DNA from: a virus
Taxonomy: Duplodnaviria; Heunggongvirae; Uroviricota; Caudoviricetes
IMG/VR virus record: IMGVR_UViG_2585427735_000017
Reading direction: 5' to 3' (one strand)
DNA length: 20,470 nt
Part shown: piece after piece, positions 1 to 20,470 of the stretch
How the letters are laid out: every line of letters begins with the position of its first letter
How positions within the stretch are numbered: the first letter of the stretch is position 1
Notes under the pieces: model-generated
What the model was told of the DNA's origin: nothing
The model's input: the letters and a program-made list of their open reading frames with translations, nothing else
Databases searched by the model: none
Made by a program: the position numbers and the translations under genes

Positions 1-1302
1 GGCTGTGGGGTATTTCCAGGGCCTCTCCTTTACCACTCTCGGGAAGGCCCTTTCCCTTCTTGTCGGTAATTTCACAAGTTGTCCCATACTTGCAAGATCG
101 CGCATCAGCTCCGGTATACGTCCCGGTGAAGCGCCCTGCAATGTCATCAGCATTCTCATCACCATTCCGCATGATTCTGAGAAACTCAGTTGATTCGGCC
201 AGTAACCTTTCAGATGTTCCGCCATTTTAATCATCTGATATCTCACCAGATTATAAGCCAGTAAGACACCCCACAGCTCTTGCTCCACAAGCTCCGGCTT
301 TTTACTTCTCAGCGTCAGCCTGCTCCGTTGCATCGTCTGTTTTATCTCCCTGTATCCCAGTTCGATTTCCCAGCGATGACTGTACAGATCCCCCATTTCT
401 CCTCCGGGGAAGCGCATGGCGTCCGTCATCGACGTCAGCAGATGGCAGACTTTTCCTTTGCGCGTCACGGTCAGCAGGCGGGCAGTCACTTCATTTCCCA
501 GTCCCGGCCACTTTTTTCGTGCCTGCGGGCTGGTTTTCAGCTTCACCAGATGATCGCCTTTACCCAGTTTTCTGATCTCTTCATATTGCGCTCCCTTTCT
601 GAGAGGTATCATCCAGTGGCGGTGTTCTCCCGCCAGGCTCCAGGCATTTAACAGTCCCAGTGAGTAATAACCTTTATCCATTAACGTCAGAGTGTTATCG
701 CCGGTTTGTTCTATAAGTTGCTCAGCAAGCTCATTTTCGCTGTTCTTCATCGTGCCGAAGGCTGCAGCCGTCAGCAGATGGCTGGTCAGTTCCATCTGGC
801 AGACCATTTTGACCTGCGGGTAGAGCGCCGGGTTCCCGGCATGTGTCTGGCGGGGGAAGGCTGCATCGTTCTCTGGTGTATCCGGTGTGCGCCAGAACAC
901 ACCATCGATGGCCAGCAGGGTCAGGCCGCACCAGTGCGGATGCGGCGTGGCGTTATGCCAGAGCTGCGCTGTTTTCGTGAACACGCGGCGGACAGCCTCA
1001 CTTCCCAGGCGCTGGCGGGCCTGAATAACGGCACTGGGGGCAACGAAGGGGCGATTGCCCGGCAACATGATGTCCAGGCGATTCACAATCTGGTGAAGAG
1101 GTTCTTTACGCTCAAGCGCCATGCCAACAATACACCAGACCATCATTTCGAGGGGAAGACGGCGCTTGCGTAGCGTTACAGTACCTGATTCGGCAAGGCA
1201 ACGAGAGATGAGTTCGGGGTCGAGGTAATCCCCCAGAGAAGTCAGTGGGTTACGCAGAGAATCGTAACGGGATACCAGATCAAGAGCCTGTCCAATGTGC
1301 AT
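1..1302 (-). CDS. insG: IS4-family DDE transposase (InsG-like), C-terminus truncated by window edge
   Basis: I translated the reverse complement from ATG (complement of 1300-1302) to position 1 by hand: 434 codons with no stop, [30 protein letters not shown]...[16 protein letters not shown]...RPWKYPTA. Absent from the ORF track only because the stop lies outside the window. Confidence 0.9.
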
Positions 1303-1386
1303 AAAAAAATCCGGAAACAAGTGAGCGTTTCCGGATTCTTACACAGCCACTGGATCGGTCAACTGATCCTTAACTGATCGGCATTA
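1..1386 (-). mobile_element. IS4: IS4 insertion sequence, partial (right terminus near 1386; left ~40 bp lies beyond the window start)
   Basis: The - strand encodes a recognisable IS4 transposase; the terminal sequence CCTTAACTGATCGGCATTA at 1368-1386 matches my recollection of the IS4 inverted-repeat end. Full IS4 is about 1.4 kb, so the other end falls just left of position 1. Confidence 0.85.
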
Positions 1387-1468
1387 CTACCTTCGGGTGG
1401 CCTTTTTTATTGCTGCGATCCGGATGGTGAGCAGCGTAACTGTCGGAAGACTTAAACCAGGTACTAAT

Positions 1469-2233
1469 ATGAAACTGAAAACGGTCGAGATTAACGGAAA
1501 ACAATACGCAGAAATTGATACTGCTGGCCTGCCAGTTTATGTGCACGACGATGGTAAAGAAATTGGCTTCGATGCACCGCTGGCGACAAAAAAAATTACA
1601 GAGCTTAATGGCGAGGCAAAAAATCATCGCCTGGCTAAAGAAGCTGCAGAGGAAAAACTGGCTAAGTTTGCCGCTATCGAAGACCCGAAGAAGGCGATCG
1701 AGGCACTGGAAATGCTGTCAAAAATCGACCAGAAAAAGCTGCTCGATGCGGGACAGGTTGACCAGGTTAAGGCAGAAATTACGAAAAATTTTCAGCAGCA
1801 ATTAGATGAAGAAAAGCAACGCTCTCAGATGCTGGAGAAGCAGCTTTACGATTCTATGATTGGCGGTAGTTTTGCGGGTTCAAAATATATTGCCGATAAA
1901 ATTGCGATCCCGGCAGATTTATTACAAGCCCGCTTCGGGCAGGCATTCAAAGTGGAAGAAGGGAGGATCGTTGCTTATGACGCTTCCGGCAACAAAATTT
2001 ATTCCCGCGCGAAGCCTGGCGAACTGGCGCAGTTTGATGAGGCGCTGGAGTTCCTTGTCGAAAATTACCCTCAGAAAGACTACATCCTGAAAGCCAGTGG
2101 CAACAATGGCGGCGGCTCCCGTCCGACACAGCATGATATTGGTCAGAAAACGATGAAACGCTCTGCTTTTGATGCACTGGATGTTGCAGGTAAGCAAAAC
2201 GCATTGAAAGACGGTATCACAATCGTTGATTAA
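1469..2233 (+). CDS. Putative head scaffolding protein
   Basis: Lys/Glu-rich 254 aa ORF (MKLKTVEINGKQYAEI...) directly upstream of the major capsid gene. Function inferred from position and composition only. Start uncertain: ATG 1469 chosen; ATG 1424 and GTG 1397 are in frame, and the open frame runs back into the IS4 end. Confidence 0.55.
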   Translation: MKLKTVEINGKQYAEIDTAGLPVYVHDDGKEIGFDAPLATKKITELNGEAKNHRLAKEAAEEKLAKFAAIEDPKKAIEALEMLSKIDQKKLLDAGQVDQVKAEITKNFQQQLDEEKQRSQMLEKQLYDSMIGGSFAGSKYIADKIAIPADLLQARFGQAFKVEEGRIVAYDASGNKIYSRAKPGELAQFDEALEFLVENYPQKDYILKASGNNGGGSRPTQHDIGQKTMKRSAFDALDVAGKQNALKDGITIVD

Positions 2234-2331
2234 CACATTTGTCAGCTTCCGGATGGGAGCTGGTGTCAGGGCTGGATAGCTCATTACTCCATCTATTCAC
2301 AATTACGCAAATTTTTAAGGAATATTTAATT

Positions 2332-3471
2332 ATGGCTGGAAATACCCTGACCGGGTTGATCCCGACTATTTATACCGCCCTGGATGTTGTATCCCGTGAG
2401 CAGGTAGGTTTTATCCCTGCGGTAGCAAAAAACGCAAAAGCTGACGCCGCAGCAAAAGATCAGACGGTAACCGCGCCAGTTGCGCCTGAGGCGAAAACCG
2501 AAGATATCGTACCGGGGCCGTCAGCTCCGAATACCGGTGATCAAAATATTGGCACTGTTGATGTAAAAATTACTAAATCCAAAATGGCACCGGTTAAATG
2601 GAATGGTGAAGAACAACTGGCTCTTGGCCCTTCAGGGACTTACAACACCATTCTGGCTGATCAGTTCAAGCAGGCTTTTCGCGCCCTTGCAAACGAGGTT
2701 GAGGCTGATCTTGGTGCGTTGTATTTCGGTGCTTCCCGCGCCGTGGGAACCGCAGGGACAACGCCGTTTGGTGTTAAAGATGATCTTTCTGATGCTGCTC
2801 TGGCTCGTCAGGTTCTGGAGGATAACGGCGCACCGACAACCGATCTGCAGATGGTGCTTGGCTCCACTGCCATTGCTAATTTGCGCGGAAAACAGTCTGT
2901 ATTGTTTAAAGTGAATGAATCCGGCACTGAACAGCTACTGCGTGAGGGCGTGTTGGGGCGTCTGGAGGGATTCAATATTCACAGTTCGGCAGGTGTGAAA
3001 CGAGCGCCAAAGGTTGCTGCAACTGGTTATCTCGTGAATGGAGAGAAAAAAGAAGGCGATGTTCTTATTTCCATTGATACTGGTTCGGGGAGTATTTCTG
3101 CAGGTCAGATTGTTACGTTCGCTGGTGATCCGAATCAGTATGTTGTGGCAGCAGCGACCAGCAATCTGATTACTCTTGCAGCGCCCGGACTGCGTCAGGA
3201 TCTGGCCGATGATACTGCCATCACAGTTGTTGGGGCCTTTACGGCAAATATGGCGTTTGATCGCAACGCGTTTCTGCTGGCATCCCGTACTCCGGCAATG
3301 CCGGAAGGTGGCGATAATGCTGATGATGTAATGAATGTTACGGACCCGATTTCAGGGATTACGTTCCAGATTGCACTGTATCGTCAGTATCGCCAGGTGC
3401 GCTATGAAGTTGGACTGGCATGGGGTGTTTCATCAGTGAAGCCGGCACATGGTTGTCTGATTCTTGGTTAA
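2332..3471 (+). CDS. Major capsid protein (family not identified)
   Basis: 379 aa ORF starting MAGNTLTGLIPTIY, with AAGGA ribosome-binding site about 10 nt upstream of ATG 2332, followed by a hairpin terminator; placed between scaffold-like and connector genes. The track start at 2239 has no ribosome-binding site. Confidence 0.7.
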   Translation: MAGNTLTGLIPTIYTALDVVSREQVGFIPAVAKNAKADAAAKDQTVTAPVAPEAKTEDIVPGPSAPNTGDQNIGTVDVKITKSKMAPVKWNGEEQLALGPSGTYNTILADQFKQAFRALANEVEADLGALYFGASRAVGTAGTTPFGVKDDLSDAALARQVLEDNGAPTTDLQMVLGSTAIANLRGKQSVLFKVNESGTEQLLREGVLGRLEGFNIHSSAGVKRAPKVAATGYLVNGEKKEGDVLISIDTGSGSISAGQIVTFAGDPNQYVVAAATSNLITLAAPGLRQDLADDTAITVVGAFTANMAFDRNAFLLASRTPAMPEGGDNADDVMNVTDPISGITFQIALYRQYRQVRYEVGLAWGVSSVKPAHGCLILG

Positions 3472-3481
3472 ACATTCAAAC

Positions 3482-3501
3482 GGGGCTTCGGCCCCATTTT
3501 T
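3482..3501 (+). terminator. Hairpin plus T-run after capsid gene (putative attenuator)
   Basis: GGGGC-TTCG-GCCCC stem-loop (5 bp stem, UUCG tetraloop) followed by ATTTTT, 11 nt after the capsid stop. Confidence 0.45.
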
Positions 3502-3513
3502 AATGGGGGGCAT

Positions 3514-3690
3514 ATGGCCGGATTAACTAAAGAGCAAAGAGCACAGCGTGAAGCCGCACAAAAAACGCAAATTGAGTTAGTGGTTATGGTGACCGATTAT
3601 CAGATGTTTCCCGGCGCACCAACTATCGCTAATGTTCATCCTGATGAAGTTGACAACTGGAAGGCTATGGGCTGGAAAACTCAGGAGTAA
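3514..3690 (+). CDS. Small hypothetical protein (58 aa), below the ORF-track cutoff
   Basis: ATG 3514 preceded by GGGGGG (short 3 nt spacer); translates MAGLTKEQRAQREAAQKTQIELVVMVTDYQMFPGAPTIANVHPDEVDNWKAMGWKTQE; exactly fills the gap between the capsid terminator and the next gene, same strand. Confidence 0.4.
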   Translation: MAGLTKEQRAQREAAQKTQIELVVMVTDYQMFPGAPTIANVHPDEVDNWKAMGWKTQE

Positions 3691-3693
3691 CAC

Positions 3694-4089
3694 ATGATCA
3701 CTTACGTGACCTGTGATGACGTTGATAATGCGTTTGGGAACGCCTGGACGAGTGAGAACGCTAAAAATAAAGCTGTTTTAATGGCTAATGCCTGGCTTAA
3801 TGGCTTCAACCTGAAAATTAACCCATCCCGTATTCCGGAAGAGGTAAAACTTGCGGGAGCATATGCAGCCAGAATTGCCTCATTCGGTAAGTTGTTTCAG
3901 CAGAAAAATGATTCTGGCGTTGTTATCAGTAAAGCCGTGTCGGCTGACGGGGTCAGTGTATCGAAATCATTTTCTGAGTTGCCAGCAAACAGCACTGCAT
4001 TGCTTGAACCCGATTTACAGCTTGCGATAGCACTGCTGAAACCGTACGGACTTAGTCGCTCACAAGTCAGGGTTGTGAGGGGGGGATAA
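3694..4089 (+). CDS. Putative head-tail connector / head completion protein
   Basis: 131 aa ORF with AGGAG ribosome-binding site; first of four small translationally coupled ORFs between capsid and tail tube genes. Function inferred from position. Confidence 0.55.
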   Translation: MITYVTCDDVDNAFGNAWTSENAKNKAVLMANAWLNGFNLKINPSRIPEEVKLAGAYAARIASFGKLFQQKNDSGVVISKAVSADGVSVSKSFSELPANSTALLEPDLQLAIALLKPYGLSRSQVRVVRGG

Positions 4090-4472
4090 TGGGGCTTCGT
4101 GAAGAGATTCAGTCAGAGGTTGCCGCTGCTTTTGATGAGGATTTAACGGACGCCGTGAGTGATTTTTCTGGTTCTTACGTTACGCACCGGCACTGGGATC
4201 CTGTGACGGAAACTGGCGGCGAATCCACCGCAATCTATACCGGGCGAGGCGTGTTGACACGTTATAAGCTGGGCAGAATTGATGGGATTAATATTTTGCA
4301 TGGTGACCTTAAATTAACCGCTCTGGTATGCGAGGTTACGGATAAACCAGCTGTCGACCATATTATTGAGATTTATGATCCTGTATCAAGGCAGTTACAA
4401 CGATACGAGGTAATTACAGCAAGTGTAGATCCTTCCGCATCAGTTTACTCTATCCAGTTAAGGAGAGCGTAA
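4089..4472 (+). CDS. Putative head-tail joining protein
   Basis: 127 aa ORF; start overlaps the upstream stop (TAATG); synteny with head-tail joining genes of siphophages. Confidence 0.55.
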   Translation: MGLREEIQSEVAAAFDEDLTDAVSDFSGSYVTHRHWDPVTETGGESTAIYTGRGVLTRYKLGRIDGINILHGDLKLTALVCEVTDKPAVDHIIEIYDPVSRQLQRYEVITASVDPSASVYSIQLRRA

Positions 4473-4853
4473 ATGGCAAAGGCATGGGATATAGAACCGT
4501 CAATATTTGCCGGGATGATTGAGGAAGATGTAGGGCTGAAGATTCGCTACATCGCTATTCAGATTCTTACTGCTATTGATATTGCTGCTCCGGTTGATAC
4601 CGGACGTTTCAGAAATAACAACCTGGTGTCGTTACAGCATCCCGATTTTGGTATATCTGATAACGTGGATCCGAACGGTACGATTGCTGTTCAGCGTGGG
4701 ATCGGGGTTATTTCGAAAGCTGCAAATTACGGAGTTATTTATATCCAGAATAACCTTCCTTATGCAGAGGCTCTTGAAAACGGTCATTCACAACAAGCGC
4801 CAACTGGCGTGTATGCCAACGCTTTTCATGGTGTTTTACAGGCTTACAAATGA
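4473..4853 (+). CDS. Putative tail completion / neck protein (HK97 gp10-like)
   Basis: 126 aa ORF with AAGGAGAG ribosome-binding site; contains a PVDTGRFRNN motif that I recall as typical of the HK97 gp10 family. From memory, unverified. Confidence 0.6.
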   Translation: MAKAWDIEPSIFAGMIEEDVGLKIRYIAIQILTAIDIAAPVDTGRFRNNNLVSLQHPDFGISDNVDPNGTIAVQRGIGVISKAANYGVIYIQNNLPYAEALENGHSQQAPTGVYANAFHGVLQAYK

Positions 4854-5242
4854 CGTTTACTGAAATCAGAAATACGGTTATTTCCAGAATGACGGCACAG
4901 ACGATTATTGATGGAAAAGACGTATTGTATCCGAACGCGCCAACGTTCGATCCTTCCGGTAAGTTAATCTGGGCGCGGTTAAGTAATATTCCCGGGCAGG
5001 CTGGAGTTAATGAAATTGGCGCGGGGCCGATTGTTTATCGCACGGGGATAATCATTATTCAGTTATTTGTCCCCGCAGGTTCTGGTTCAAAACTCATTAC
5101 TGAGACAGCCGATAAATTGCGGGAACTGTTTGAGTTTCAGGATGACGATCGTCTCAGTTACCAGGCTGTTTCCTCAATAGCCGTTGGCGAAAAGAATGGC
5201 TGGTTCCAGCTTAATCTTCAAATTCCATATCGCGCGCTCTAG
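4850..5242 (+). CDS. Putative tail terminator / tail completion protein
   Basis: 130 aa ORF with ATGA start-stop overlap with the upstream gene; sits immediately before the major tail gene, the lambda U-equivalent position. Confidence 0.55.
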   Translation: MTFTEIRNTVISRMTAQTIIDGKDVLYPNAPTFDPSGKLIWARLSNIPGQAGVNEIGAGPIVYRTGIIIIQLFVPAGSGSKLITETADKLRELFEFQDDDRLSYQAVSSIAVGEKNGWFQLNLQIPYRAL

Positions 5243-5268
5243 CGCAATTAATGACATAGGAGGCTCCT

Positions 5269-6231
5269 GTGAGTTCAGGTGCAAAGGTTATCTCGGCATT
5301 TATCCGGGAGACGGTTGCAGGCACTACGCCAGCAAGTGGTGACTGGAGTTTATTAAAACGCACAAGCTGGGGAGTAAAACCCACCCAGAATAAAGGCGAA
5401 AATAATGAGATTGGTGGCTCCCGGATGGCTCAGGGGGCGACGCCTGGCACTGTGGATGTCGGCGGTGATGTTGGTACCAAATTTCGCTGGGGTCAACATG
5501 ATGATTTTCTTGCATCCTGTTTCGGCGCGGAATGGTCAGGCGATTCTCTGACAATGGGGAATGAGCGAATAACATTTTCTCTGGCGACCTATGCGTCCGA
5601 TGTCGGAATTGCCTCTGTCGTCAGAGGAGCGCAGGTTGGCTCATGGAAAATGCAGATCCCTAACGACGGCGATATTACAGTGACCGTAACCTTTGCCGGA
5701 CTGGACTGGGAATCAAAGGCCGATGATACGAATTTTATCAAAGGCGAACCTGTGGATAGTGCAGGAAAGCTACGTTATTCGTTTAAGGAGGTTTCAGCAG
5801 TAAGCCTGAATGGTGTTGCCGGAGGTAACGGTTTTTGTATCGACAGTTTTGATATTCAGTTCGATAACAAACTCCAGACACAGCGTTGTATCGGGACTGG
5901 CTCGCCTTATGCAGGAGCAAATATTCCGACTACTTTTACACCGTCCGGTACGGTGACGCTTTCATGGTCTAAAGCCGCGTGGGAAATCTGGAGTAAAACA
6001 CTGACTGGAGAAACAGTTCCGTTCAGCTTCACGCTTTCGAATGGAGAGGGGGCATACACTTTCAGTTTCCCGAAGGTTCAGGTGTCAGGTGAATGGCCTG
6101 ATGGGGGTAATAGCGACATTATCCAGGTTCAATTGAGCATTACCGCAGCAGATGAAGCACCTACGATAACCAGAAAAAAAAATTCCCCGGCTGCCGTGAT
6201 CGCAAAAGCCAGTGCTGAGGCGATTAGTTGA
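5269..6231 (+). CDS. Major tail (tube) protein
   Basis: 320 aa ORF with GTG start 5 nt after a TAGGAGG ribosome-binding site; lies between the terminator-like gene and the chaperone pair. Not lambda V-like by recollection. Confidence 0.7.
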   Translation: MSSGAKVISAFIRETVAGTTPASGDWSLLKRTSWGVKPTQNKGENNEIGGSRMAQGATPGTVDVGGDVGTKFRWGQHDDFLASCFGAEWSGDSLTMGNERITFSLATYASDVGIASVVRGAQVGSWKMQIPNDGDITVTVTFAGLDWESKADDTNFIKGEPVDSAGKLRYSFKEVSAVSLNGVAGGNGFCIDSFDIQFDNKLQTQRCIGTGSPYAGANIPTTFTPSGTVTLSWSKAAWEIWSKTLTGETVPFSFTLSNGEGAYTFSFPKVQVSGEWPDGGNSDIIQVQLSITAADEAPTITRKKNSPAAVIAKASAEAIS

Positions 6232-6279
6232 TTTTCCGTTATTCCTCCTGTGGTACTGCCCTACAGGGGGACGCATTGA

Positions 6280-6741
6280 ATGAGGTTATGGATGTTTATT
6301 CTTAATCAGAAAATTATCATTGGTGGAGAACGCTGGTTTACGCCAATGAAGGACTTAAAACCTGTAGACGGGTTAAAACTGTTGGTGGCAAGCAGCGATA
6401 ACGATCAGTATCGCTCCCGTAATGCATTAATCCGTCGCCACATTGAGAAAATGGATGCCAGTTTGCACGTCGGAACGAAGGAGTTTGATATTTCAAAGGT
6501 TTCCGAGGTGGATTCTGTTGATGATTTACTCATTGATAATGCCGCTCGTTATCTGCTGAAAGACTGGAAAGGGGTTGGTGAACTGGTTAATGGTGTTGAG
6601 GTTGCACTGGAATATACGGCAGAACGAGGGATCGCGCTGCTTAAGCAGAATCCAGAGTTGTACTGGCAGATCCTTGCAGAAGCAGCCAGCATCGCCCAGG
6701 GTAAAGAGCAGCAGAAGCAGGATACGATAAAAAAGCCATAG
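6280..6741 (+). CDS. Tail assembly chaperone (lambda G analogue)
   Basis: 153 aa ORF ending 4 nt after an A_AAA_AAG slippery heptamer, with the -1 frame open for a further ~100 codons: the conserved G/GT arrangement. An alternative start at ATG 6345 would give 132 aa. Confidence 0.7.
   Translation: MRLWMFILNQKIIIGGERWFTPMKDLKPVDGLKLLVASSDNDQYRSRNALIRRHIEKMDASLHVGTKEFDISKVSEVDSVDDLLIDNAARYLLKDWKGVGELVNGVEVALEYTAERGIALLKQNPELYWQILAEAASIAQGKEQQKQDTIKKP
6729..6735 (+). promoter_or_regulatory. Candidate programmed -1 ribosomal frameshift site (slippery heptamer A_AAA_AAG)
   Basis: AAAAAAG at 6729-6735 is in the X_XXY_YYZ register of the 6280 ORF (codons AAA AAG), 4 nt before its stop TAG 6739-6741; the -1 frame is open from here to 7049. 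Confidence 0.6.
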
Positions 6742-7049
6742 CTGCCCAGCGGTGGTTATCGGAGTTCGGGGGAGAAAGGGGGGAAAAGGCAAGATGGAAG
6801 CGAGAAAAACTCAGGTTGCCACCGATACCGGAACCAGAAATAGACCCGGTGCTTAAGGAGTTGTTGTACGCCTATTCGGTAATATCCCGTGCCCGACGTT
6901 ATGCTGGAATGGCTGGGGTGCCTTTGCCTTTATCTCTGACAGAGATAAATGAATATTTAGCCACTCATCCGGTATTGATTGAGCGCGATGAATTTGAAGC
7001 AGTGATCTTTGCACTGGATGACCAGTATTTTCAGGAGCAGTGTGTGTAG
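6729..7049 (+). CDS. Tail assembly chaperone C-terminal extension (lambda T analogue), expressed as a G-T fusion by -1 frameshift
   Basis: The -1 frame has no stop from 6735 to TAG 7047-7049. The track ORF 6816..7049 begins at a TTG inside this frame and lacks an independent ATG and ribosome-binding site. Confidence 0.55.
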   Translation, partial: KKAIAAQRWLSEFGGERGEKARWKREKLRLPPIPEPEIDPVLKELLYAYSVISRARRYAGMAGVPLPLSLTEINEYLATHPVLIERDEFEAVIFALDDQYFQEQCV

Positions 7050-7169
7050 TTGTTAATTACGTACACTCTGTTACAGAGATGTGATGGTGTCTTTAATTAA
7101 ATCGATGATGCTCCTGGAGAAAAGCATTGCGTGACCTCGTAATCGCTATATCTACTATTATGTCGCCTG

Positions 7170-7194
7170 AAACCCACTTCGCGGTGGGTTTTTT
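7170..7194 (+). terminator. Rho-independent terminator-like hairpin upstream of the tape measure gene
   Basis: AAACCCAC-TTCGCG-GTGGGTTT stem (8 bp) running into TTTTTTG, about 20 nt before the AGGAG ribosome-binding site and ATG 7215. Confidence 0.5.
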
Positions 7195-7214
7195 GTTGTC
7201 AGGAGTTTTAATAA

Positions 7215-7841
7215 ATGGCAGAGCAAACCTCGCGTCTCGCAATAATTATTGATAGCACTGGAGCGAAAAATAATGCTGACAATCTGACCTCCTCATTAGT
7301 CAAAATGACGCAGGCTGGGGAAACTGCTGCAAATAGCGCAGGGAAAGTGACTAAGGCAACAGAAGATGAGAAGAACGCGCTCGCAAAATTAAAAGCAGCT
7401 ATTGATCCAGTTGGTGCCGCAATTGATACTGTCGGTCGACGCTATTCTGAATTAAAGAAATTTTTCGATAAAGGGCTTATTGATAAAGAAGAATATGAAT
7501 TTCTTGTCCGTAAACTTAATGAAACCACAGAGGAATTGAGCGGGGTTGCGCAAGCGCAGAGAGAAGCCGAGAAGGCCGGAAAACTTGCTGCCGCCCAGCA
7601 GGAAGCGCAGGCTCAGGCCTTTCAAAGAATGCTGGACAAGATCGACCCTCTGGCTGCGGCGCTAAGAAATCTTGAACAACAGCATGATGAACTTAATGCT
7701 GCGTTTGCATCCGGGAAAATAAATGGTTCTCAGTTTGAGAATTATAGCCGAAAAATACAGGAAACACGGCGAGAGCTTACCGGAGAGGCTCAGGCAGAGC
7801 GAGAAGCAGCAAAAGCGCATGATGAAGATGCTTTCTCCTGA
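7215..7841 (+). CDS. Tape measure protein, N-terminal coiled-coil segment (frame A), ends in premature stop
   Basis: 208 aa ORF with AGGAG ribosome-binding site; Ala/Glu/Gln/Lys-rich with repeated heptad-like motifs ([18 protein letters not shown] / [17 protein letters not shown]). Overlaps the main tape measure frame by ~120 nt. Confidence 0.6.
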
Positions 7842-10341
7842 AATGTATGAGGAGCTTTCTGGAAAACTTCGTGCTATGCGGAGTGAGCTTGAGGTTACTC
7901 AATCACAATTAAGCAAAACCGGAATGTCGGCAAAACAAACGGCTTTTGCTATGCGCATGTTGCCTGCACAAATGACGGATATTGTTGTTGGGTTGTCCAC
8001 TGGTCAGTCGCCATTTATGGTGTTAATGCAGCAGGGCGGCCAGCTAAAAGATATGTTCGGTGGGATTGGCCCGGCGATCAAAGGTGTAGGTTCTTATGTG
8101 CTGGGATTAATTAATCCTTTTACCCTGGCCGCAGCAGCCGTTGGGGTCTTAGGACTGGCTTACTATAAAGGCTCTCAGGAGCAGGACGAATTTAATAAAT
8201 CTCTTATTCTTACCGGAAATCAGTTGGGGACAACCAGCGGGCAATTGGGCGATATAGCTCAACGTGCCGGGAATGCGGCTGATTCGACAACTGGTGCTGC
8301 GGCGGCAGTATTAAATCAGCTTGTGCGTTCGGGAAAGGTAGCGAGCAGTTCGCTGGAGCAAGTGACGACAGCGATAGTAAAAACGAGCGAAGTAACAGGA
8401 ATATCAACCGAACAACTGGTTAATGACTTCAATGAAATTGCAAAGGATCCTGTCAGTGCCATATCAAAACTTAATGATCAGTACCATTTTCTGACACTTG
8501 CGACTTATAACCAGATTAAGGCGCTACAGGATGAAGGGAACCAGCAGGAGGCCGCCCGCATTGCGACAGAAGAATACTCATCCTCAATGATCCAGCGCAC
8601 CAACCAGATTAAAGAAAATCTTGGTTATCTTGAGACTGCATGGAAAGCTGTCGCAGACTCCGCAAAATGGGCATGGGATTCCATGCTGGATATTGGCCGT
8701 GAGGCCTCCCTTGATCAAAAAATCTCAGATGTTCTCCGTCAAATTGATGAAATAGAAAAAAATCCCCGACCCGGAGTTTTCGGGTTAGGTGGCATTGGAG
8801 ATGGCGGAGCTCAAAATAAAAGGCTGGCACGATTAAAGCAGCAATTGGGCGTACTTCAAGCAGAAAAAATTGCTCAGGACGTACTAAATTCATCAATAAA
8901 CGATTACAACAAGCGACAACAGGAAGGAATTGAACTCAGACAGAGAGCAGATGCCTTTTCAAAACAATATCAGACCCGGGAGCAGCAGAGAGCTAGTGAA
9001 CTTGCAAAACTGGAAAAGCTAAAGAATCAGTATTCAAAGGAAGAATATAATAATCTTATCGCTCAAATAAATGAGCGTTATAAAGATCCAAAGCAACCAA
9101 AGGCGAAAGGTTATTCTGATGATGCAGCCCAACGAATGATTGATCATCTGAATCAACAGAATGCGTTACTAAGTTCACAAGCTGAGTTGACCGTTAAATT
9201 AAGTTCCTCTGAACAGGAACTGGTTAAGTGGCGTCAGCGGATTGCCGACCTAGAGTCACGACCATCATCGAAATTAACCCAGGATCAGAAATCGCTTCTC
9301 TTCCACCGGGAAGAAATAACCGCGTTGATGGAGAAAAATGTTGCGATTGAAAAGAATAACAGGCTAATCAAGGAATCCGCCGAAATAACAGCATGGCGTG
9401 ATTCATTGCAGGCTTCGATTGATAATCGTCAGCAGGGGTATGATATTCAGATTGCTGGTTATGGGGTTGGCGATAAAAATCAGCAACGCCAGCAGGAATT
9501 ACTGCGGATTGAACATGGATATAACAATCAGCGTCTGCAACTTGAACGTGACTATGCAGATAAATCCCGTGGAATGTCAGATCATGTTTTTCAAGAGAAA
9601 ATGCAGGCTCTGAATGATGCTCTGGAACGGGAAAAAGAAATTGTCAGACAGAAAAACGAGCAACTCGATATTCAGGCAGGAGACTGGGTTAGTGGTGCCT
9701 CCCAGGGATTCAATAACTGGCTGGATGACACTAAGGATATCAGTGAGCAGATAAAATCAACCACGACTCAGATGTTTGATGGGATGACCGATGCGCTGGG
9801 TGATTTTGTCACGACAGGCAAGGCAAATTTTCGTTCTTTCGCTACTTCCGTGATTTCGGATCTTAGTCGAATGGCATTAAAGGCTTCAATTACTGGGATT
9901 TTCGACAGCATTAGTAACAGTTCTTCTGGGGGGATTTTAGGAACTATCGGGAGTGCTATTAGTAAATTTATTCCGAATGCAAAGGGCGGTGTTTATGAGT
10001 CTCCGTCATTGAGCACGTATTCGAACGGTATTTATGATTCCCCGCAATTTTTTGCTTTTGCAAAAGGGGCTGGTGTTTTTGGTGAGTCTGGACCGGAAGC
10101 CATTATGCCATTAACACGAACTTCCGATGGTTCTCTTGGTGTCAGAGCTATTAATAGTAAAAGTGGTAATGGAGGCGGAGATATTACCTATGCCCCTGTA
10201 TACCAAATCACTATTCAAAATGACGGCCAGAATGGAGAGATTGGCCCTCAGGCAATAAAAGCACTTATGGGGATGGTTGATCAGCGGGTGCAGGGCAATC
10301 TGTTAAATATGCGACGTGATGGGGGAATATTAAGTGGCTAA
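7723..10341 (+). CDS. H: Tail length tape measure protein (lambda H-like), main frame B
   Basis: 872 aa ORF; [41 protein letters not shown] and the C-terminal [35 protein letters not shown] match recalled lambda H motifs. ATG 7723 is only the first ATG after a stop in this frame; the true N-terminus is probably the 7215 ORF. Confidence 0.85.
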
Positions 10342-11370: not shown

Positions 11371-11375
11371 ATCCC

Positions 11376-12119
11376 ATGACAGAGACAGAATCAGCGATTC
11401 TGGCGCACGCCCGGCGATGTGCGCCAGCGGAGTCGTGCGGCTTCGTGGTGAGAACGCCGGAGGAGGAAAGATATTTTCCCTGCGTGAATATCTCCGGTGA
11501 GCCGGAGGCGTATTTCCGGATGTCGCCGGAGGACTGGCTGAGTGCAGAAATGCAGGGAGAGATTGTGGCGCTGGTCCACAGCCACCCCGGTGGTCTGCCC
11601 TGGCTGAGTGAGGCCGACCGGCGGCTGCAGGTACAGAGTGATTTGCCGTGGTGGCTGGTCTGCCGGGGGGCGATTCATAAATTCCGCTGTGTGCCGCATC
11701 TCACCGGGCGGCGCTTTGAGCACGGGGTGACGGACTGTTACACGCTGTTCCGGGACGCTTACCATCTGGCGGGAATTGAGATGCCGGATTTTCATCGCGG
11801 GGATAACTGGTGGCGTCACGGTCAGAATCTCTATCTGGATAATCTGGAGGCCACAGGGCTGTATCAGGTGCCGTTGTCAGCGGCGCAGCCGGGCGATGTG
11901 CTGCTGTGCTGTTTTGGTTCATCGGTGCCGAATCATGCCGCCATTTACTGTGGTGACAGCGAGCTGCTGCACCATATTCCTGAACAACTGAGCAAACGAG
12001 AGAGGTACACCGACAAATGGCAGCGACGCACACACTCCCTCTGGCGTCACCGGGCATGGCACGCATCTGCCTTTACGGGGATTTACAACGATTTGGCCGC
12101 CGCATCGACCTTCGAGTGA
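11376..12119 (+). CDS. K: Tail tip assembly protein K (JAB/MPN plus NlpC/P60 domains)
   Basis: 247 aa ORF; MTETESAILAHARRCAPAESCGFVV...HSHPGGLPWLSEAD (HxHx7Sx2D JAMM motif)...DCYTLF...NHAAIYCGD (NlpC/P60-like Cys/His). The lambda-annotated K start corresponds to ATG 11520 (199 aa) by my recollection of lambda coordinates. Confidence 0.9.
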   Translation: MTETESAILAHARRCAPAESCGFVVRTPEEERYFPCVNISGEPEAYFRMSPEDWLSAEMQGEIVALVHSHPGGLPWLSEADRRLQVQSDLPWWLVCRGAIHKFRCVPHLTGRRFEHGVTDCYTLFRDAYHLAGIEMPDFHRGDNWWRHGQNLYLDNLEATGLYQVPLSAAQPGDVLLCCFGSSVPNHAAIYCGDSELLHHIPEQLSKRERYTDKWQRRTHSLWRHRAWHASAFTGIYNDLAAASTFE

Positions 12120-12664
12120 AAACGGGGTCCGAAGCCATCCGGGCGCTGGCCATGCAGATCCCGGCATTTCGTCAGAAACTGAGCGACGGCTGGTACCAGG
12201 TACGCATTGCCGGGCGTGATGCAGGTGAAACTGAATTGTCTGCCCGTCTTAATGAGCCGCTGGAAAATGGTGCCGTGATCCACATCGTACCGCGTCCGGC
12301 GGGTGCTAAAAGTGGCGGTATTTTTCAGGCAGTGCTGGGGGCGGCGCTGATTGCGGTTGCATGGTGGAACCCTGTGGGCTGGCTGGGGGCCACGGCTGTA
12401 TCGGGTATGTATGCGGCAGGGGCCAGTATGATCCTGGGCGGTGTGGCGCAGATGTTGGCACCGAAAGCCAGGACGCCCACGGCAGCCAGTACAGATAACG
12501 GCAAACAGAACACGTATTTCTCGTCACTGGATAACATGGTTGCCCAGGGCAATGTTCTGCCCGTTCTGTACGGTGAAATGCGCGTGGGGTCGCGGGTGGT
12601 CTCTCAGGAGATCAGCACGGCAGACGAAGGGGATGGTGGTCAGGTTGTGGTGATTGGTCGCTGA
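12017..12664 (+). CDS. I: Tail tip assembly protein I
   Basis: 215 aa; MAATHTLPLASPGMARICLYGDLQRFGRRIDLRVKTG...NVLPVLYGEMRVGSRVVSQEISTADEGDGGQVVVIGR matches lambda I; overlaps the 3' end of K by ~100 nt in another frame, as in lambda. Confidence 0.9.
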   Translation: MAATHTLPLASPGMARICLYGDLQRFGRRIDLRVKTGSEAIRALAMQIPAFRQKLSDGWYQVRIAGRDAGETELSARLNEPLENGAVIHIVPRPAGAKSGGIFQAVLGAALIAVAWWNPVGWLGATAVSGMYAAGASMILGGVAQMLAPKARTPTAASTDNGKQNTYFSSLDNMVAQGNVLPVLYGEMRVGSRVVSQEISTADEGDGGQVVVIGR

Positions 12665-12683
12665 TGAAAAACGTTTTATGTGA

Positions 12684-12703
12684 AACCGCCTCCGGGCGGT
12701 TTT
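12684..12703 (+). terminator. Terminator-like hairpin between I and J (weak)
   Basis: AACCGCC-TCCG-GGCGGTT stem-loop followed by TTTTG, about 20 nt before the J ribosome-binding site. Confidence 0.35.
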
Positions 12704-12721
12704 GTCGTTTATGGAGCGTGA

Positions 12722-16120
<3,399 letters not shown>

Positions 16121-16138
16121 ATTTTATAACCCAGAACG

Positions 16139-16162
16139 GGCGTCAGAAATGACGCCTTTTTT
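16139..16162 (+). terminator. Rho-independent terminator between the J region and lom
   Basis: GGCGTCA-GAAA-TGACGCC (7 bp stem, GAAA loop) followed by TTTTTT. Confidence 0.6.
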
Positions 16163-16186
16163 ATTGCAGAAAAGCGAGAGGTAATT

Positions 16187-16786
16187 ATGCGTAAACTTTA
16201 TGCCGCCATTTTGTCCGCAGCCATTTGTCTGGCCGTATCCGGTGCGCCTGCATGGGCGTCTGAACATCAGTCCACGCTGAGCGCGGGGTATCTTCATGCC
16301 CGGACGAACGTTCCCGGCAGCGATGATCTTAACGGGATTAACGTGAAATACCGTTATGAGTTTACGGACACACTGGGGCTGGTGACGTCATTCAGCTATG
16401 CAGGAGACAAGAATCGCCAGCTTACCCGTTACAGCGATACCCGCTGGCATGAAGATTCCGTGCGTAACCGCTGGTTCAGCGTGATGGCGGGGCCGTCTGT
16501 ACGCGTGAATGAATGGTTCAGCGCGTATGCGATGGCGGGTGTGGCTTACAGCCGTGTGTCGACTTTCTCCGGGGATTATCTCCGCGTAACTGACAACAAG
16601 GGGAAAAAGCACGATGTGCTGACCGGAAATGATGACGGTCGCCACAGCAACACGTCTCTGGCGTGGGGGGCTGGCGTGCAGTTTAACCCGACCGAGTCCG
16701 TGGCCATTGATGTCGCTTATGAAGGTTCCGGCAGTGGCGACTGGCGCACTGACGGTTTCATCGTGGGTGTCGGTTATAAATTCTGA
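16187..16786 (+). CDS. lom: Lom outer-membrane protein (Ail/Lom family beta-barrel)
   Basis: 199 aa; signal peptide [24 protein letters not shown]; C-terminal [23 protein letters not shown] matches the lambda Lom C-terminus; GAGAGG ribosome-binding site. Confidence 0.92.
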
Positions 16787-16812
16787 TTAGCCAGGTAACA
16801 CAGTGTTATGAC

Positions 16813-16839
16813 AGCCCGCCGGTTCAGGCGGGCTTTTTT
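16813..16839 (+). terminator. Rho-independent terminator after lom
   Basis: GCCCGCC-GGTTCA-GGCGGGC stem-loop followed by TTTTTT, ending 11 nt before the stf ATG. Confidence 0.6.
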
Positions 16840-16850
16840 GTGGGGTGAAT

Positions 16851-19800
16851 ATGGCAGTAAAGATTTCAGGTGTACTGAAAGACGGCACAGGAAAACCGGT
16901 ACAGAACTGCACAATCCAGCTGAAAGCAAAACGTAACAGCAACACGGTGGTGGTGAACACGCTGGCCTCAGAAAATCCGGATGAAGCCGGGCGTTACAGT
17001 ATGGACGTTGAGTACGGGCAGTACAGCGTTATTCTGTTGGTGGAGGGATTCCCGCCGTCACATGCCGGGACCATCACCGTGTATGAAGATTCTCAACCCG
17101 GTACGCTGAATGATTTTCTCGGTGCCATGACGGAGGATGATGCCCGTCCGGAGGCACTGCGACGTTTTGAACTGATGGTGGAAGAGGTGGCGCGTAACGC
17201 GTCCGCGGTGGCACAGAACACAGCAGCCGCGAAGAAGTCAGCCAGCGATGCCAGCACATCAGCCCGTGAGGCGGCAACCCATGCGACTGATGCTGCAGGC
17301 TCAGCACGCGCAGCCAGCACGTCAGCCGGACAGGCCGCGTCGTCGGCTCAGTCAGCGTCTTCCAGCGCAGGAACGGCATCAGCAAAGGCCACTGAAGCAT
17401 CAAAAAGTGCTGCCGCTGCAGAGTCCTCAAAAAGCGCGGCGGCTACCAGTGCCGGTGCGGCGAAAACGTCAGAAACGAATGCGGCAGCGTCACAACAATC
17501 AGCAGCCACTTCTGCATCCACCGCGACCACGAAAGCGTCAGAAGCAGCCACTTCAGCACGGGATGCGTCGGCTTCAAAAGAGGCGGCAAAATCATCAGAA
17601 ACGAACGCAGCCTCGAGCGCCAGCAGCGCAGCTTCCTCGGCTACGGCGGCAGGAAATTCCGCGAAGGCGGCAAAAACGTCCGAGACGAACGCCAGGTCTT
17701 CTGAAACGGCAGCGGAACAGAGTGCCTCCGCAGCAGCAGGCTCAAAAACAGCGGCTGCGTCGTCTGCCAGTGCCGCGTCAACAAGTGCCGGGCAGGCCTC
17801 AGCCAGTGCCACCGCCGCCGGAAAATCGGCAGAAAGCGCCGCATCGTCTGCTTCAACAGCCACAACGAAGGCTGGCGAAGCCACTGAACAGGCCAGCGCA
17901 GCAGCGAGGTCTGCTTCCGCAGCGAAGACATCCGAAACGAATGCGAAAGCGTCGGAAACCAGTGCAGAATCCTCAAAAACGGCAGCCGCATCGTCCGCCA
18001 GTTCGGCGGCGTCATCGGCATCATCTGCGTCTGCTTCAAAAGATGAGGCGACCAGACAAGCGTCAGCAGCGAAGGGCAGCGCCACGACAGCATCCACGAA
18101 GGCGACAGAGGCAGCTGGCAGTGCGACGGCGGCAGCACAGAGCAAAAGTACGGCGGAATCCGCGGCAACGCGCGCTGAGACAGCGGCAAAACGGGCAGAG
18201 GATATTGCATCCGCCGTGGCGCTTGAGGATGCGAGCACGACGAAAAAGGGGATAGTACAGCTCAGCAGTGCGATCGACAGCACTTCCGAGTCACTGGCGG
18301 CAACGCCAAAAGCAGTTAAGGCCGCGTATGACCTGGCTAACGGGAAATACACCGCACAGGATGCAACGACAGCACAGAAAGGGATAGTCCAGCTAAGCAG
18401 CGCGACCAACAGCACGTCTGAAACGCTGGCGGCAACGCCAAAGGCAGTAAAAGCAGCCAATGACAATGCTGAGAAACGTCTGCAGAAAGATCAGAACGGT
18501 GCGGATATCCCTGGCAAAGACACCTTTACGAAAAATATTGGTGCCAGCCGTGCCTTCGGTGGGTCAGTAAGCACAACAACAGGAGACTGGACGACTGCAC
18601 AGTTTATCGAGTGGCTGGATTCTCAGGGAGCATTTAACCATCCATACTGGATGTGCAAGGGTTCCTGGTCTTATGGCAATAATAAAATCATTACTGATAC
18701 TGGCTGCGGTAATATTCATCTCGCCGGAGCTGTCATTGAAGTAATGGGGATAAAGTCAGCGATGACGATCCGCATTACCACACCGACCACCTCCACTGGT
18801 GGTGGAACAACTAACGCCCAGTTTACCTATATTAATCACGGAACAGATTATTCACCTGGCTGGCGAAGGGACTATAACTCCAGAAATAAGCCAACGGCAT
18901 CAGAGATCGGGGCGTTACCGTCAGGTGGAACAGCAGTATCATCAGTTAATCTGGCTTCAAAAGGTCGGGTAATCGCGCTGACAGACAATACGCAGGGGGC
19001 AACAGGTCTTGAGTTATACGAGGTGTATAACAACGGATATCCAACAGCGTATGGAAATATCATTCACCTGAAAGGGATGACAGCCGTTGGCGAAGGTGAG
19101 TTACTCATCGGCTGGAGTGGTACAAGCGGTGCTCATGCTCCGGCATTTATTCGTTCACGACGGGATACGACCGACGCAAACTGGTCGCCGTGGGCGCAGC
19201 TTTACACCTCAGCTCATCCTCCTGCAGAGTTTTATCCAGTCGGTGCACCAATCCCGTGGCCATCAGATACCGTTCCGTCTGGCTATGCCCTGATGCAGGG
19301 GCAGACTTTTGACAAATCTGCTTACCCGAAACTTGCAGCCGCTTATCCGTCAGGCGTGATCCCTGATATGTGTGGCTGGACGATTAAGGGCAAACCTGCC
19401 AGTGGTCGAGCCGTATTATCTCAGGAACAGGACGGCATTAAATCGCACACCCACAGCGCCAGCGCATCCAGTACGGATTTGGGGACGAAAACCACATCGT
19501 CGTTTGATTACGGCACTAAATCCACGAATAACACCGGGGCACATACACACAGTGTGAGCGGCTCTACAAACTCGGCTGGAGCACACACACACTCACTAGC
19601 CAACGTGAACACGGCTAGTGCTAACTCCGGTGCTGGTAGTGCATCAACAAGATTGTCTGTTGTGCATAATCAAAACTATGCAACATCATCTGCTGGCGCA
19701 CATACCCACTCACTGTCCGGCACTGCTGCAAGCGCAGGTGCACACGCACATACTGTCGGTATTGGTGCTCATACGCACTCCGTTGCGATTGGTTCACATG

Positions 19801-19886
19801 GACACACCATCACCGTTAACGCTGCTGGTAACGCGGAAAACACCGTCAAAAACATCGCATTTAACTATATTGTGAGGCTTGCATAA
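16851..19886 (+). CDS. stf: Side tail fibre protein Stf
   Basis: About 1011 aa; N-terminal [30 protein letters not shown], long Ala/Ser/Thr-rich repeat region, tandem KGIVQLSS...ATPKAVKAA repeats, and a C-terminal array of GAHTHS (HxH) motifs ending [12 protein letters not shown], as I recall for lambdoid Stf/StfR. ATG 16851 preferred over the track GTG 16845. Confidence 0.9.
18246..18479 (+). repeat. Tandem 132 nt (44 aa) repeat inside stf (about 1.8 copies)
   Basis: [44 protein letters not shown] followed by [34 protein letters not shown]; the copies start 132 nt apart (18246 and 18378). Confidence 0.7.
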
Positions 19887-20470
19887 TGGCATTCAGAATG
19901 AGTGAACAACCACGGACCATAAAAATTTATAATCTGCTGGCCGGAACTAATGAATTTATTGGTGAAGGTGATGCATATATTCCGCCTCATACAGGTCTGC
20001 CAGCAAACAGTACCGATATTGCACCGCCAGATATTCCGGCAGGCTTCGTGGCTGTTTTCAACAGTGATGAGGCATCGTGGCATCTCGTTGAAGATCATCG
20101 GGGAAAAACCGTCTATGACGTGGCTTCCGGCGACGCGTTATTTATTTCTGAACTTGGCTCGTTACCGGAAAATGTCACCTGGTTATCGCCGGAAGGGGAA
20201 TATCAGAAGTGGAACGGCACAGCCTGGGTGAAGGATACGGAAGCAGAAAAACTGTTCCGGATCCGGGAGGCGGAAGAAACAAAAAACAGCCTGATGCAGG
20301 TAGCCAGTGAGCATATAGCGCCACTTCAGGATGCTGTAGATCTGGAGATCGCAACGGAGGAAGAAACCTCATTGCTGGAAGCCTGGAAAAAATATCGGGT
20401 GTTGCTGAACCGTGTTAATACAACAACTGCACCGGATATTGAATGGCCAACAGTACCCATTATCGAATAG
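19886..20470 (+). CDS. tfa: Tail fibre assembly protein Tfa
   Basis: 194 aa; [79 protein letters not shown]... matches lambda Tfa by recollection; the start overlaps the stf stop (TAATG) and the stop is the last codon of the window. Confidence 0.92.

Follow-up and report, generated by a model that had tools for sequence, protein, structure and literature searches.

Gene content and genomic position of the prophage segment

The window analysed here, a stretch of 20,470 nucleotides, corresponds to bases 3-20472 of contig JOQC01000002.1 in the draft Escherichia coli assembly GCA_000713905.1. The contig starts within an IS4 copy, and the phage DNA surveyed is that lying to the right of it; the left part of the prophage, on another contig, would carry the genes for terminase, portal, lysis, immunity and integrase. 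The element is a mosaic lambdoid prophage of E. coli, of which the window covers the part from the head genes to the tail fibre genes. The order of the tail genes (tape measure, M, L, K, I, J, lom, stf and tfa), as given by Pfam families and coordinates, is lambdoid. Near 10.6 kb, GC rises abruptly from about 45% to about 58%. The features are as follows.

1-1386, minus strand: IS4 (Pfam Nterm_IS4, 3e-33, and DDE_Tnp_1, 2.9e-31; terminal inverted repeat ending at 1386)
1387-1410, plus strand: 3' part of a terminator-like hairpin with a TTCG loop and a T run (consensus terminator scan; comparison with intact relatives)
1469-2233, plus strand: DUF6651 head-module gene, intact (Pfam PF20356, 8.7e-61; no indel relative to L001 or L002)
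2332-3471, plus strand: P22-type major capsid protein gene, intact (Pfam P22_CoatProtein; annotated as major capsid protein in relatives)
3514-5242, plus strand: five small genes between the capsid and tail tube genes, intact (translations without internal stops)
5269-6231, plus strand: tail tube gene, intact (PF18906 Phage_tube_2; colinear with relatives)
6292-6741, plus strand, with the -1 frame staying open as far as 7049: tail assembly chaperone gene of the YdaY family (PF27119 Phage_YdaY; three-frame translation)
7215-7841, plus strand: N-terminal fragment of the tape measure gene (204 native and 4 out-of-frame residues)
7827-10341, plus strand: C-terminal remainder of the tape measure gene in another frame (Pfam TMP_2, TMP_4, Tape_meas_lam_C)
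10334-12664, plus strand: tail tip genes M, L, K and I, all intact (Pfam families, translations; no indel relative to L001)
12725-15778, plus strand: truncated J (993 native and 24 out-of-frame residues; Pfam domains up to Phage_Tail_Tip)
15704-16120, plus strand: rest of the receptor-binding domain of J, containing two more 1-bp deletions, at 15938 and 15952
16187-16786, plus strand: lom, Ail/Lom outer membrane protein gene, intact (Pfam Ail_Lom, 3.7e-120; full length)
16851-19886, plus strand: stf, side tail fibre gene encoding 1011 residues, intact (Pfam phage_tail_N, Phage_fiber_2, Collar)
19886-20470, plus strand: tfa, tail fibre assembly gene, intact (Pfam Caudo_TAP, 1.2e-43)

The last of the five small genes encodes a tail terminator (Phage_tail_terminator_5), and the first four are annotated as hypothetical proteins in relatives. 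At the end of the chaperone gene, a slippery heptamer, A AAA AAG, is located at 6729-6735; the -1 extension is a candidate for programmed frameshifting rather than a lesion. A tailocin, i.e., a complete tail module without head genes, was considered and rejected, as the window has intact capsid and DUF6651 genes together with a broken tape measure gene.

The preliminary description of this DNA had stated that lom, stf and tfa are full length with intact start contexts, and this was borne out: all three are colinear with intact relatives and are preceded by Shine-Dalgarno-like sequences. The length of stf equals that of KK05-19 stf, with no indel relative to L013. Terminator-like hairpins (16138-16157 and 16813-16834) were found by the terminator scan on both sides of lom, whereas a search of the sequence preceding it for a sigma-70 consensus promoter gave none. 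Within tfa, positions 20229-20427 match Rfam IS009 (RF02111) with 225 bits.

Immediately past its right end, the window is followed by a diguanylate cyclase gene resembling dgcX, an att core and then ybhB-bio-uvrB. The core, GCTTTTTTATACTAA, is an exact lambda att core located 2.05 kb from the window end (L008 15666-15680), between the gene for a MASE4-GGDEF protein and ybhB-bioA-bioBFCD-uvrB. This right flank places the prophage in the lambda attachment site, adjacent to bio. The same stf-tfa-cyclase-att arrangement is found in strain 55989 and in O104:H4 strains, where the cyclase gene has been published as dgcX at attB (PMC4287979). Relatives at the Rac site carry pinR-ydfK-uspF-ompN on the right side. 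Assignment to the Rac prophage by locus was rejected, as the element is followed on its right by the dgcX-like gene, the att core and ybhB-bio, and pinR is absent after tfa.

Lesions and their ancestry

The right-end terminal repeat of IS4, ...CCTTAACTGATCGGCATTA, reaches 1386, and the transposase frame runs from 1320 to 1 on the minus strand without internal stops. The element is 97.8% identical to annotated IS4 copies in E. coli genomes and has lost approximately 40 bp of its far end to the start of the contig. In intact relatives the uninterrupted site reads ...TAAATAAATCATTTATTACAACAGG/CTACCTTCGGGTGGCCTTTTTT (slash, insertion point) and is intergenic; the minor head protein gene stops 22 nt to its left, and the ATG at 1469 follows 82 nt to its right. 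Thus, the insertion at the head module reported in the preliminary description is confirmed in its right end at 1386 but lies between genes, not within one; in comparison with intact relatives, no coding sequence in the window was shown to be hit by IS4. The insertion sequence has landed in an intergenic terminator-like hairpin within the head gene cluster, where it may exert a polar effect on late transcription. The junction was absent from the complete E. coli genomes searched.

The tape measure gene, previously described as frameshifted at about 7800, is indeed broken there, but by a 107-bp out-of-frame deletion at 7826/7827 rather than by a point frameshift. The missing bases are present in the Rac-type prophage L001 (18441-18547) and in L002. 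The deletion truncates the protein after residue 204, which, given the known role of tape measure proteins, should block tail assembly. Because the tape measure frame is cut after native residue 204 of 1077, the prophage, seen from the right of IS4 only, is very probably defective (cryptic), and particle production is probably lost. The deletion junction was found in 0 of 5,426 complete E. coli genomes; it is shared by two other datasets, a Logan contig (SRR1186690) and an ENA metagenome contig (L004, L005), and for this reason the tape measure lesion is no artefact. The Logan contig has the IS4 junction, the tape measure deletion and six of the seven lineage-specific substitutions, and it differs from the window at 8764, so it is not a mere copy of the window's sequence. 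The IS4 junction and the tape measure deletion are therefore real, and the caveat that the lesions might be sequencing artefacts does not hold for these two, which recur in this independent dataset.

In J, three 1-bp deletions, at 15703 (15703/15704), 15938 and 15952, are the sole gaps in the right-arm alignment, and all fall in the receptor-binding domain. Their net change is -3, such that the last 56 codons return to the original frame; an ORF at 15917-16120 matches positions 80-135 of PF12421 (Ig_GpJ_C). Frameshifts had been placed at about 15705 and 15935, and J is broken near both, by three 1-bp deletions rather than two. The chance of three random sites falling within 250 bp is approximately 5e-4, too small for the deletions to be independent events. 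The deletion cluster would scramble the receptor-binding domain, and J-mediated receptor binding should be lost.

The deletions in J are absent from any second assembly and rest on one draft assembly. It is conceivable, although unlikely, that they are draft consensus errors from mixed reads of the J genes of several prophages in one genome; J would then be undamaged, and the true lesions would be limited to the tape measure gene and the IS4 site. The truncated J, a 67-residue J remnant and the exact Lom protein are known from a single assembly only, and three deletions and two substitutions are crowded into 250 bp, with no other 1-bp indel in 19 kb. In addition, the Logan contig breaks at 10739 in the L gene, for which a near-identical copy elsewhere is one possible cause. 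On the other hand, all three deletions are located outside homopolymer runs, an independent assembly differs from the contig at only one of 9,381 bases, and 1-bp deletions are not a normal product of graph-based assemblers.

Comparison with relatives points to the age of the lesions. Positions 1387-7826 are 99.9% identical and 7827-15720 99.5% identical to the Rac-type prophage L001, the 107-bp gap being the sole gap relative to full-length Rac-type prophages before the J junction at 15703, and the right arm is 98.5% identical to KK05-19. By this measure, full-length Rac-type prophages nearly match the element in the head genes, the tail-shaft genes and the first 993 residues of J, and the J receptor-binding domain, lom, stf and tfa are of other allelic types. 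The first J deletion coincides exactly with the switch from the L001-type to the KK05-19-type allele. The J 3' end of the window was absent from complete E. coli genomes, with a best full-length match of 95.5%. Seven lineage-specific substitutions were counted in 11.3 kb (five nonsynonymous, one synonymous and one intergenic). The lesions are recent and private to this lineage, whose identity to intact relatives is still 99.5-99.9%, which leaves almost no time for selection to retain any gene.

The abrupt allele switch at a 1-bp deletion might also mark a chimeric contig, in which a Rac-type prophage left of 15703 was misjoined in J to a lambda-site prophage on the right, so that the damaged genes would come from one element and the intact lom, stf and tfa from another. 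In all relatives examined, the Rac-type structural module is located at ompN/uspF rather than at the lambda site, and the lambda-site prophages of 55989 and ST866 carry lambda-type head genes. However, the two alleles have no exact stretch in common at the junction that would let a k-mer graph pass from one to the other, mosaicism is frequent among lambdoid phages, and dgcX has been published beside different lambdoid prophages, one of them at the Rac site (PMC4287979); we regard a misjoin as barely credible.

Selection and chance in the distribution of lesions

The preliminary description read the intactness of lom, stf and tfa beside damaged morphogenesis genes as a sign that these three genes are useful to the host. 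They make up 22.1% of the phage DNA of the window, and the two largest genes, those for the tape measure protein and J, make up 34%. The probability that lom, stf and tfa receive no hit is 0.61, 0.47 and 0.29 for two, three and five random events, respectively; hence, the lesions do not avoid these genes beyond chance. Random hits suffice (P about 0.5) to account for the asymmetry, and approximately 14 further structural or virion genes are equally intact, so the asymmetry does not serve as a sign of host use. In addition, the split between 'morphogenesis' and 'host interaction' genes is partly arbitrary because stf and tfa are themselves virion genes. The term cryptic prophage stands in so far as the element is very probably defective, with the tape measure lesion found in two further datasets; a selective pattern of decay is not supported.

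Domestication, in which lom, stf and tfa are selected for host benefit and virion-only genes decay, is nevertheless consistent with several observations. All three genes are intact with plausible ribosome-binding sites, the terminator-like hairpins bracket lom as in an autonomous unit, and the much more degraded Rac prophage of K-12 keeps stfR and tfaR intact. Tail fibre genes are also reported as enriched in incomplete prophages (PMC7744054). Against this, besides the lack of significance and the other intact virion genes, the lesions are private and recent, and the sole private substitution across lom, stf and tfa, Lom S148N, is nonsynonymous, a single change without statistical power for purifying selection. 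Moreover, lom lacks a detectable sigma-70 consensus promoter upstream, and insertion sequences in related prophages strike both kinds of genes (IS110 in the tape measure gene, IS2 in ydaY, IS5 in stf of strain 4114 and IS5 in lom of K-12 Rac), such that in this small sample retention of the same genes was not found across independently degraded relatives. Domestication is therefore considered quite unlikely here; given the published enrichment, selection may act on stf and tfa in general, and this locus has no power to reveal it.

Two further readings concern the mosaic junction at 15703. The intact genes may persist not for the host but as raw material for other lambdoid phages, superinfecting or co-resident, which acquire tail fibre and J segments of defective prophages through relaxed homologous recombination, the first J frameshift being a scar of exchange. 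Recombination of lambda with Rac and Qin in stf-tfa has been shown experimentally (PMC3945230), and the junction fits such an exchange; this reading is unlikely, however, as it accounts for mosaicism and not for preferential retention, which was not detected. Very improbable, in turn, is that the right arm (J receptor-binding domain, lom, stf, tfa, dgcX and attR) is a host-selected cassette at the lambda site, passed between unrelated lambdoid prophages by imprecise recombination in J. The 15703 deletion would then be the scar left when Rac-type DNA replaced in situ the left portion of the resident prophage, and lom, stf and tfa would survive through linkage to the cyclase gene.

Based on the results presented above, the element is probably a young lambdoid prophage recently disabled by a few private mutations, in a course of ordinary decay. 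Little time would have elapsed, a few random events would have struck the largest targets first, and lom, stf and tfa would be intact for the same cause as the capsid, tube, chaperone and M, L, K and I genes.

Comparison with known prophages

Khan and Wahl (2020; PMC7744054, which also cites Bobay et al.) found degraded prophages to be enriched in transposase and tail fibre genes, with packaging and lysis genes lost, so the persistence of tail fibre genes in degraded prophages is already a published general idea. That work provides statistics over more than 1,000 prophages, whereas the window is a single locus at a far earlier stage of decay with a non-significant asymmetry, and a selective reading, if true, would add one more example to the published trend. 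As this locus shows, a small number of lesions in a defective prophage of recent date gives no basis for reading a selective pattern into its decay: the largest genes are struck first by chance, and contig ends in insertion sequences hide half of the evidence. Useful by-products of the analysis are the exact description of the lesions, the placement at the lambda site beside a dgcX-like gene and the coincidence of the J mosaic junction with a frameshift; beyond careful annotation, the significance of the locus is small.

Among the closest known systems, full-length Rac-type prophages of E. coli (such as those of strains GCM74-1-1 and C2 and the record 'Salmonella phage SPF_0923') resemble the window in gene order and are 99.5-99.9% identical over 1387-15703, and the degraded Rac of K-12 has the gene types of the ydaY chaperone, tape measure (ynaA in K-12), lom, stf and tfa in common with it. 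These prophages occupy the ompN/uspF site, whereas the element studied here lies at the lambda site beside bio, differs in its allele of the J receptor-binding domain and has no pinR following tfa; the IS4, the 107-bp deletion and the J deletions of the window are absent from all of the complete genomes.

The dgcX lambdoid prophages at attB (EAEC 55989, O104:H4 and ETEC; Richter et al. 2014, PMC4287979) have the same layout of stf, tfa, cyclase gene, att core, ybhB and bioA, and from the 3' part of stf to attR they are 98-99% identical to the present element. They differ in carrying lambda-type head and tail-shaft genes (S49 protease, decoration protein, gpG/gpT), in contrast to the Rac/P22-coat type of the window. 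Similarly, the late region of lambda (Z-U-V-G-T-H-M-L-K-I-J-lom-stf-tfa) has the same tail gene order, a -1 slippery site ending the chaperone gene and a C-terminal receptor-binding domain in J, and its J is likewise followed by lom, stf and tfa, oriented as here with respect to attR and bio. In type, however, lambda has head and tail-shaft genes unrelated to those of the window (P22-like coat, DUF6651 and YdaY chaperone).

Location and ancestry of the element

Bases 3-20472 of contig JOQC01000002.1 (323,664 bp; draft assembly GCA_000713905.1) correspond to the window at 100% identity. The contig starts within IS4, and the sequence left of the insertion lies on another contig; an assembly break at a repeated element is typical. 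A check for att sites outside the window had been suggested, and an exact copy of the lambda att core, GCTTTTTTATACTAA, is present in the contig past the window's right end, followed by ybhB, bioA, bioBFCD and uvrB. The exact core and these neighbours place the element at the lambda attachment site as a prophage in the lambda orientation.

Features of the window and of the contig to its right
1-1386, minus strand: IS4 transposase frame, uninterrupted, with Pfam Nterm_IS4 and DDE_Tnp_1
Right of IS4: complete late-gene series of DUF6651, P22-type coat protein, five small genes, tail tube, YdaY-family chaperone, tape measure gene, M, L, K, I, J, lom, stf and tfa
Five small genes after the coat protein: the last is the tail terminator; the other four are without assigned function
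lom: 199 aa, full-length Ail/Lom
stf: 1011 aa, equal in length to stf of the KK05-19 prophage
tfa: 194 aa, intact
13694-15680 of L008 (the piece of the source contig reaching past the window): MASE4-GGDEF gene (dgcX-like; opposite strand, 443 residues, intact), between tfa and the att core, and the att core

The dgcX-like cyclase gene occupies the same position, in the same arrangement and with 98-99% identity, in 55989 and O104:H4 strains, where it is the published dgcX, a cargo gene adjoining various lambdoid prophages at attB (PMC4287979).

The left part of the element has a different ancestry from the right. Positions 1387-15703 share 99.5-99.9% identity with full-length prophages of the Rac type (that of strain GCM74-1-1, for example); these relatives reside at ompN/uspF and not at the lambda attachment site. 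From 15704 on, the best relative is the KK05-19 prophage (98.5%), and the nearest tfa is that of lambda-site prophages (98.4% to ST866); in contrast to the Rac-type genes of the window, however, the head and shaft genes of the lambda-site prophages of 55989 and ST866 are lambda-type. The element is thus a mosaic. In addition, GC content rises from ~43-47% in the head, shaft and tape measure genes to ~58-60% in L, K, I and J; this step at ~10.6 kb (about 10500-11000) marks an older module boundary, common to the Rac-type relatives.

Lesions in the late-gene region

The preliminary description was partly confirmed, with corrections to both the coordinates and the types of the lesions. The tape measure gene is broken, as had been described, but the frameshift placed at ~7800 is in fact the consequence of a 107-bp deletion at 7826/7827 (18441-18547 in L001, the intact Rac-type prophage). 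After the deletion, 204 native and 4 out-of-frame residues are left, and the other 838 codons lie in a different frame. None of 5,426 complete E. coli genomes matched a 44-base query spanning the deletion junction. This part of the tape measure gene is carried by 1,070 genomes, and in the 15 best of them the hit extends over 307 bases rather than 200, indicating that the 107 bp are present there. The same deletion is found in a contig of SRR1186690 and in an ENA metagenome contig, and its occurrence in two further datasets shows that it is real and not a sequencing artefact. The SRR1186690 contig shares 6 of 7 lineage-specific substitutions and has the ancestral base at 8764, which implies that its sequence was not simply copied from that of the window. 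Microhomology does not account for the deletion: no bases are shared at the junction itself, and the GATG present on either side of it is retained in both copies.

A split tape measure gene was also considered as a normal variant and rejected, since the "phage" records with two annotated tape measure genes, such as ON470595, are partial, of low quality and broken elsewhere, with other genes missing. Closer inspection of one record, vB_EcoS-683R6 (ON470595.1), showed a partial genome in which the tape measure gene is split and neither K nor J is annotated; two tape measure genes are likewise listed for several related vB_EcoS records. ON470595.1, for one, is no basis for inferring that a phage whose tape measure gene is split can be viable.

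J is likewise broken, by three 1-bp deletions (15703, 15938 and 15952) and not by two frameshifts at ~15705 and ~15935. These were located by comparison with the nearest intact allele (KK05-19, 3399 nt), from which no further indel separates the window up to the end of tfa. Deletion 1 stops the native frame past residue 993 of 1132; deletions 2 and 3 are 14 bp apart with two substitutions in between; the net change is -3, and the final 56 codons are again in the original frame. All three fall within the receptor-binding domain, and of Pfam PF12421 only positions 80-135 are still readable. The chance that three random sites lie inside 250 bp is ~5e-4; the J deletions are therefore not independent events. 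Deletion 1 is positioned exactly at the switch from the Rac-type to the KK05-19-type allele (15703/15704), where the two alleles have no shared stretch of identity. This coincidence suggests that deletion 1 could have been left by an imprecise recombination event rather than by a point mutation. The three deletions could instead be consensus errors, as exact-protein look-ups with Lom and with both J products (the truncated protein and the 67-residue remnant) found the source assembly only; however, the deletions lie outside homopolymer runs, and errors of this kind are an unlikely explanation.

IS4 is present at 1-1386, with its terminal repeat ending at 1386, but the insertion is intergenic and interrupts no coding sequence within the window. 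In intact relatives, the stop codon of the minor head protein gene is followed by 22 nt and then by CTACCTTCGGGTGGCCTTTTTT; the phage part of the window opens exactly with that CTACC, and the ATG at 1469 is 82 nt downstream. This start point places the insertion within an intergenic terminator-like hairpin, in its 5' stem. If IS4 is a simple insertion and not the edge of a deletion or rearrangement, the left flank should consist of the minor head protein gene and an 11-13 bp duplicate of CTACCTTCGGGT, with terminase, portal, lysis, immunity and integrase genes farther upstream. Neither the right junction nor this predicted left junction had an exact-pattern match in the genome and metagenome collections, from which the source genome is absent, and no complete E. 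coli genome has IS4 joined to this phage sequence. The Logan assembly of SRR1186690 begins with the last 28 bases of IS4 and continues with the identical junction.

In E. coli SMS-3-5 (L007 6201-6230) and the other 14 listed genomes, IS4 lies between eno and a TPM-domain gene and is followed by sequence very similar to that next to IS4 in the window. The flanks are CTACCTTCGGGTGGCCTTTTTTATTGCTG (window 1387-1415) and CAGCCTTCGGGCTGGCATTTTTTATGGCTG (SMS-3-5), each a terminator-like hairpin with a TTCG loop and a T run. IS4 has a strong target preference, which the similar hairpins flanking both copies fit.

Intact genes and the distribution of lesions

As had been reported, lom, stf and tfa are full length with intact start contexts, and Shine-Dalgarno-like sequences lie upstream. 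All other structural genes in the window besides the tape measure gene and J are likewise intact. The gap between ydaY (ending at 6741) and the ORF at 6816-7049 was rejected as a lesion, because the slippery heptamer A AAA AAG at 6729-6735 and a -1 frame open to 7049 match a chaperone programmed frameshift. Tail assembly chaperones use such a frameshift, as in lambda G/GT, which the candidate slippery site and open -1 frame of the window resemble. Relatives have the two chaperone parts annotated separately or in shortened form. Between the window and the ENA metagenome contig there are differences at 6716, 6734 and 6737, of which 6734 is within the heptamer.

The sparing of lom, stf and tfa had been read as a sign of usefulness to the host; this reading is not supported. 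The three genes make up 4,220 of 19,084 phage bases (22.1%), and random events would all miss them with a probability of 0.61 for two events, 0.47 for three and 0.29 for five; the lesions are recent, and other structural genes are intact too. The tape measure gene and J, the two largest genes, jointly form 34% of the target. Insertion sequences in close relatives occur in the tape measure gene (KCJ3K291), ydaY (M18), stf (4114) and lom (K-12 Rac), so that lom and stf are not spared as a rule.

Private substitutions were counted as well, and mark the lineage as very young. The left 11.3 kb has 7 (5 nonsynonymous, 1 synonymous and 1 intergenic); three of these (8764, 9303 and 10087) fall in what is left of the tape measure gene, each of them nonsynonymous. 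The change at 8764 arose later than the deletion, since it is missing from the SRR1186690 contig. This hints at relaxed constraint on the remnant, in numbers too small for a test. Over the 4.3 kb that stretch from the end of J through tfa, the only private substitution is nonsynonymous, Lom S148N. Such counts, which are without statistical power, fit neutral drift throughout. Synonymous/nonsynonymous differences from the nearest relatives are 6/4 for lom, 20/5 for stf, 25/8 for tfa and 25/5 for the N-terminal part of J; dN/dS from these was rejected as a selection test, because the counts represent divergence among functional phage alleles and not evolution after inactivation.

Lom is the most plausible host-relevant gene inside the window. 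Terminator-like hairpins bracket it, but its upstream region yielded no consensus promoter. Outside the window, the dgcX-like gene is the best-supported host-relevant cargo (PMC4287979). A match to the Rfam family IS009 (RF02111; 225 bits) at 20229-20427 is on the coding strand of tfa and does not extend beyond the 3' part of that gene; in this window the family thus matches coding sequence.

A probably defective prophage and its relatives

The broken tape measure gene supports the earlier view that the element is defective. It is most likely a recently disabled lambdoid prophage of mosaic make-up. From the known functions of such proteins, tails should not form when the tape measure gene is broken, and receptor binding should fail when the J domain is scrambled; IS4 may also lower the expression of the genes downstream of it. 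The intact state of the remaining genes would reflect the little time elapsed. A tailocin or other tail-derived machine was rejected because of the head genes and the break in the tape measure gene.

The finding is an ordinary one. Tail-fibre genes are enriched in incomplete prophages according to a published survey (PMC7744054); their retention as a general idea is neither new nor refuted, and this locus does not bear on it. K-12 Rac, by comparison, is much older, and its stfR and tfaR are intact. Infecting lambdoid phages are also known to acquire stf-tfa segments from such defective prophages (PMC3945230), and this donor role fits the mosaic structure of the element.
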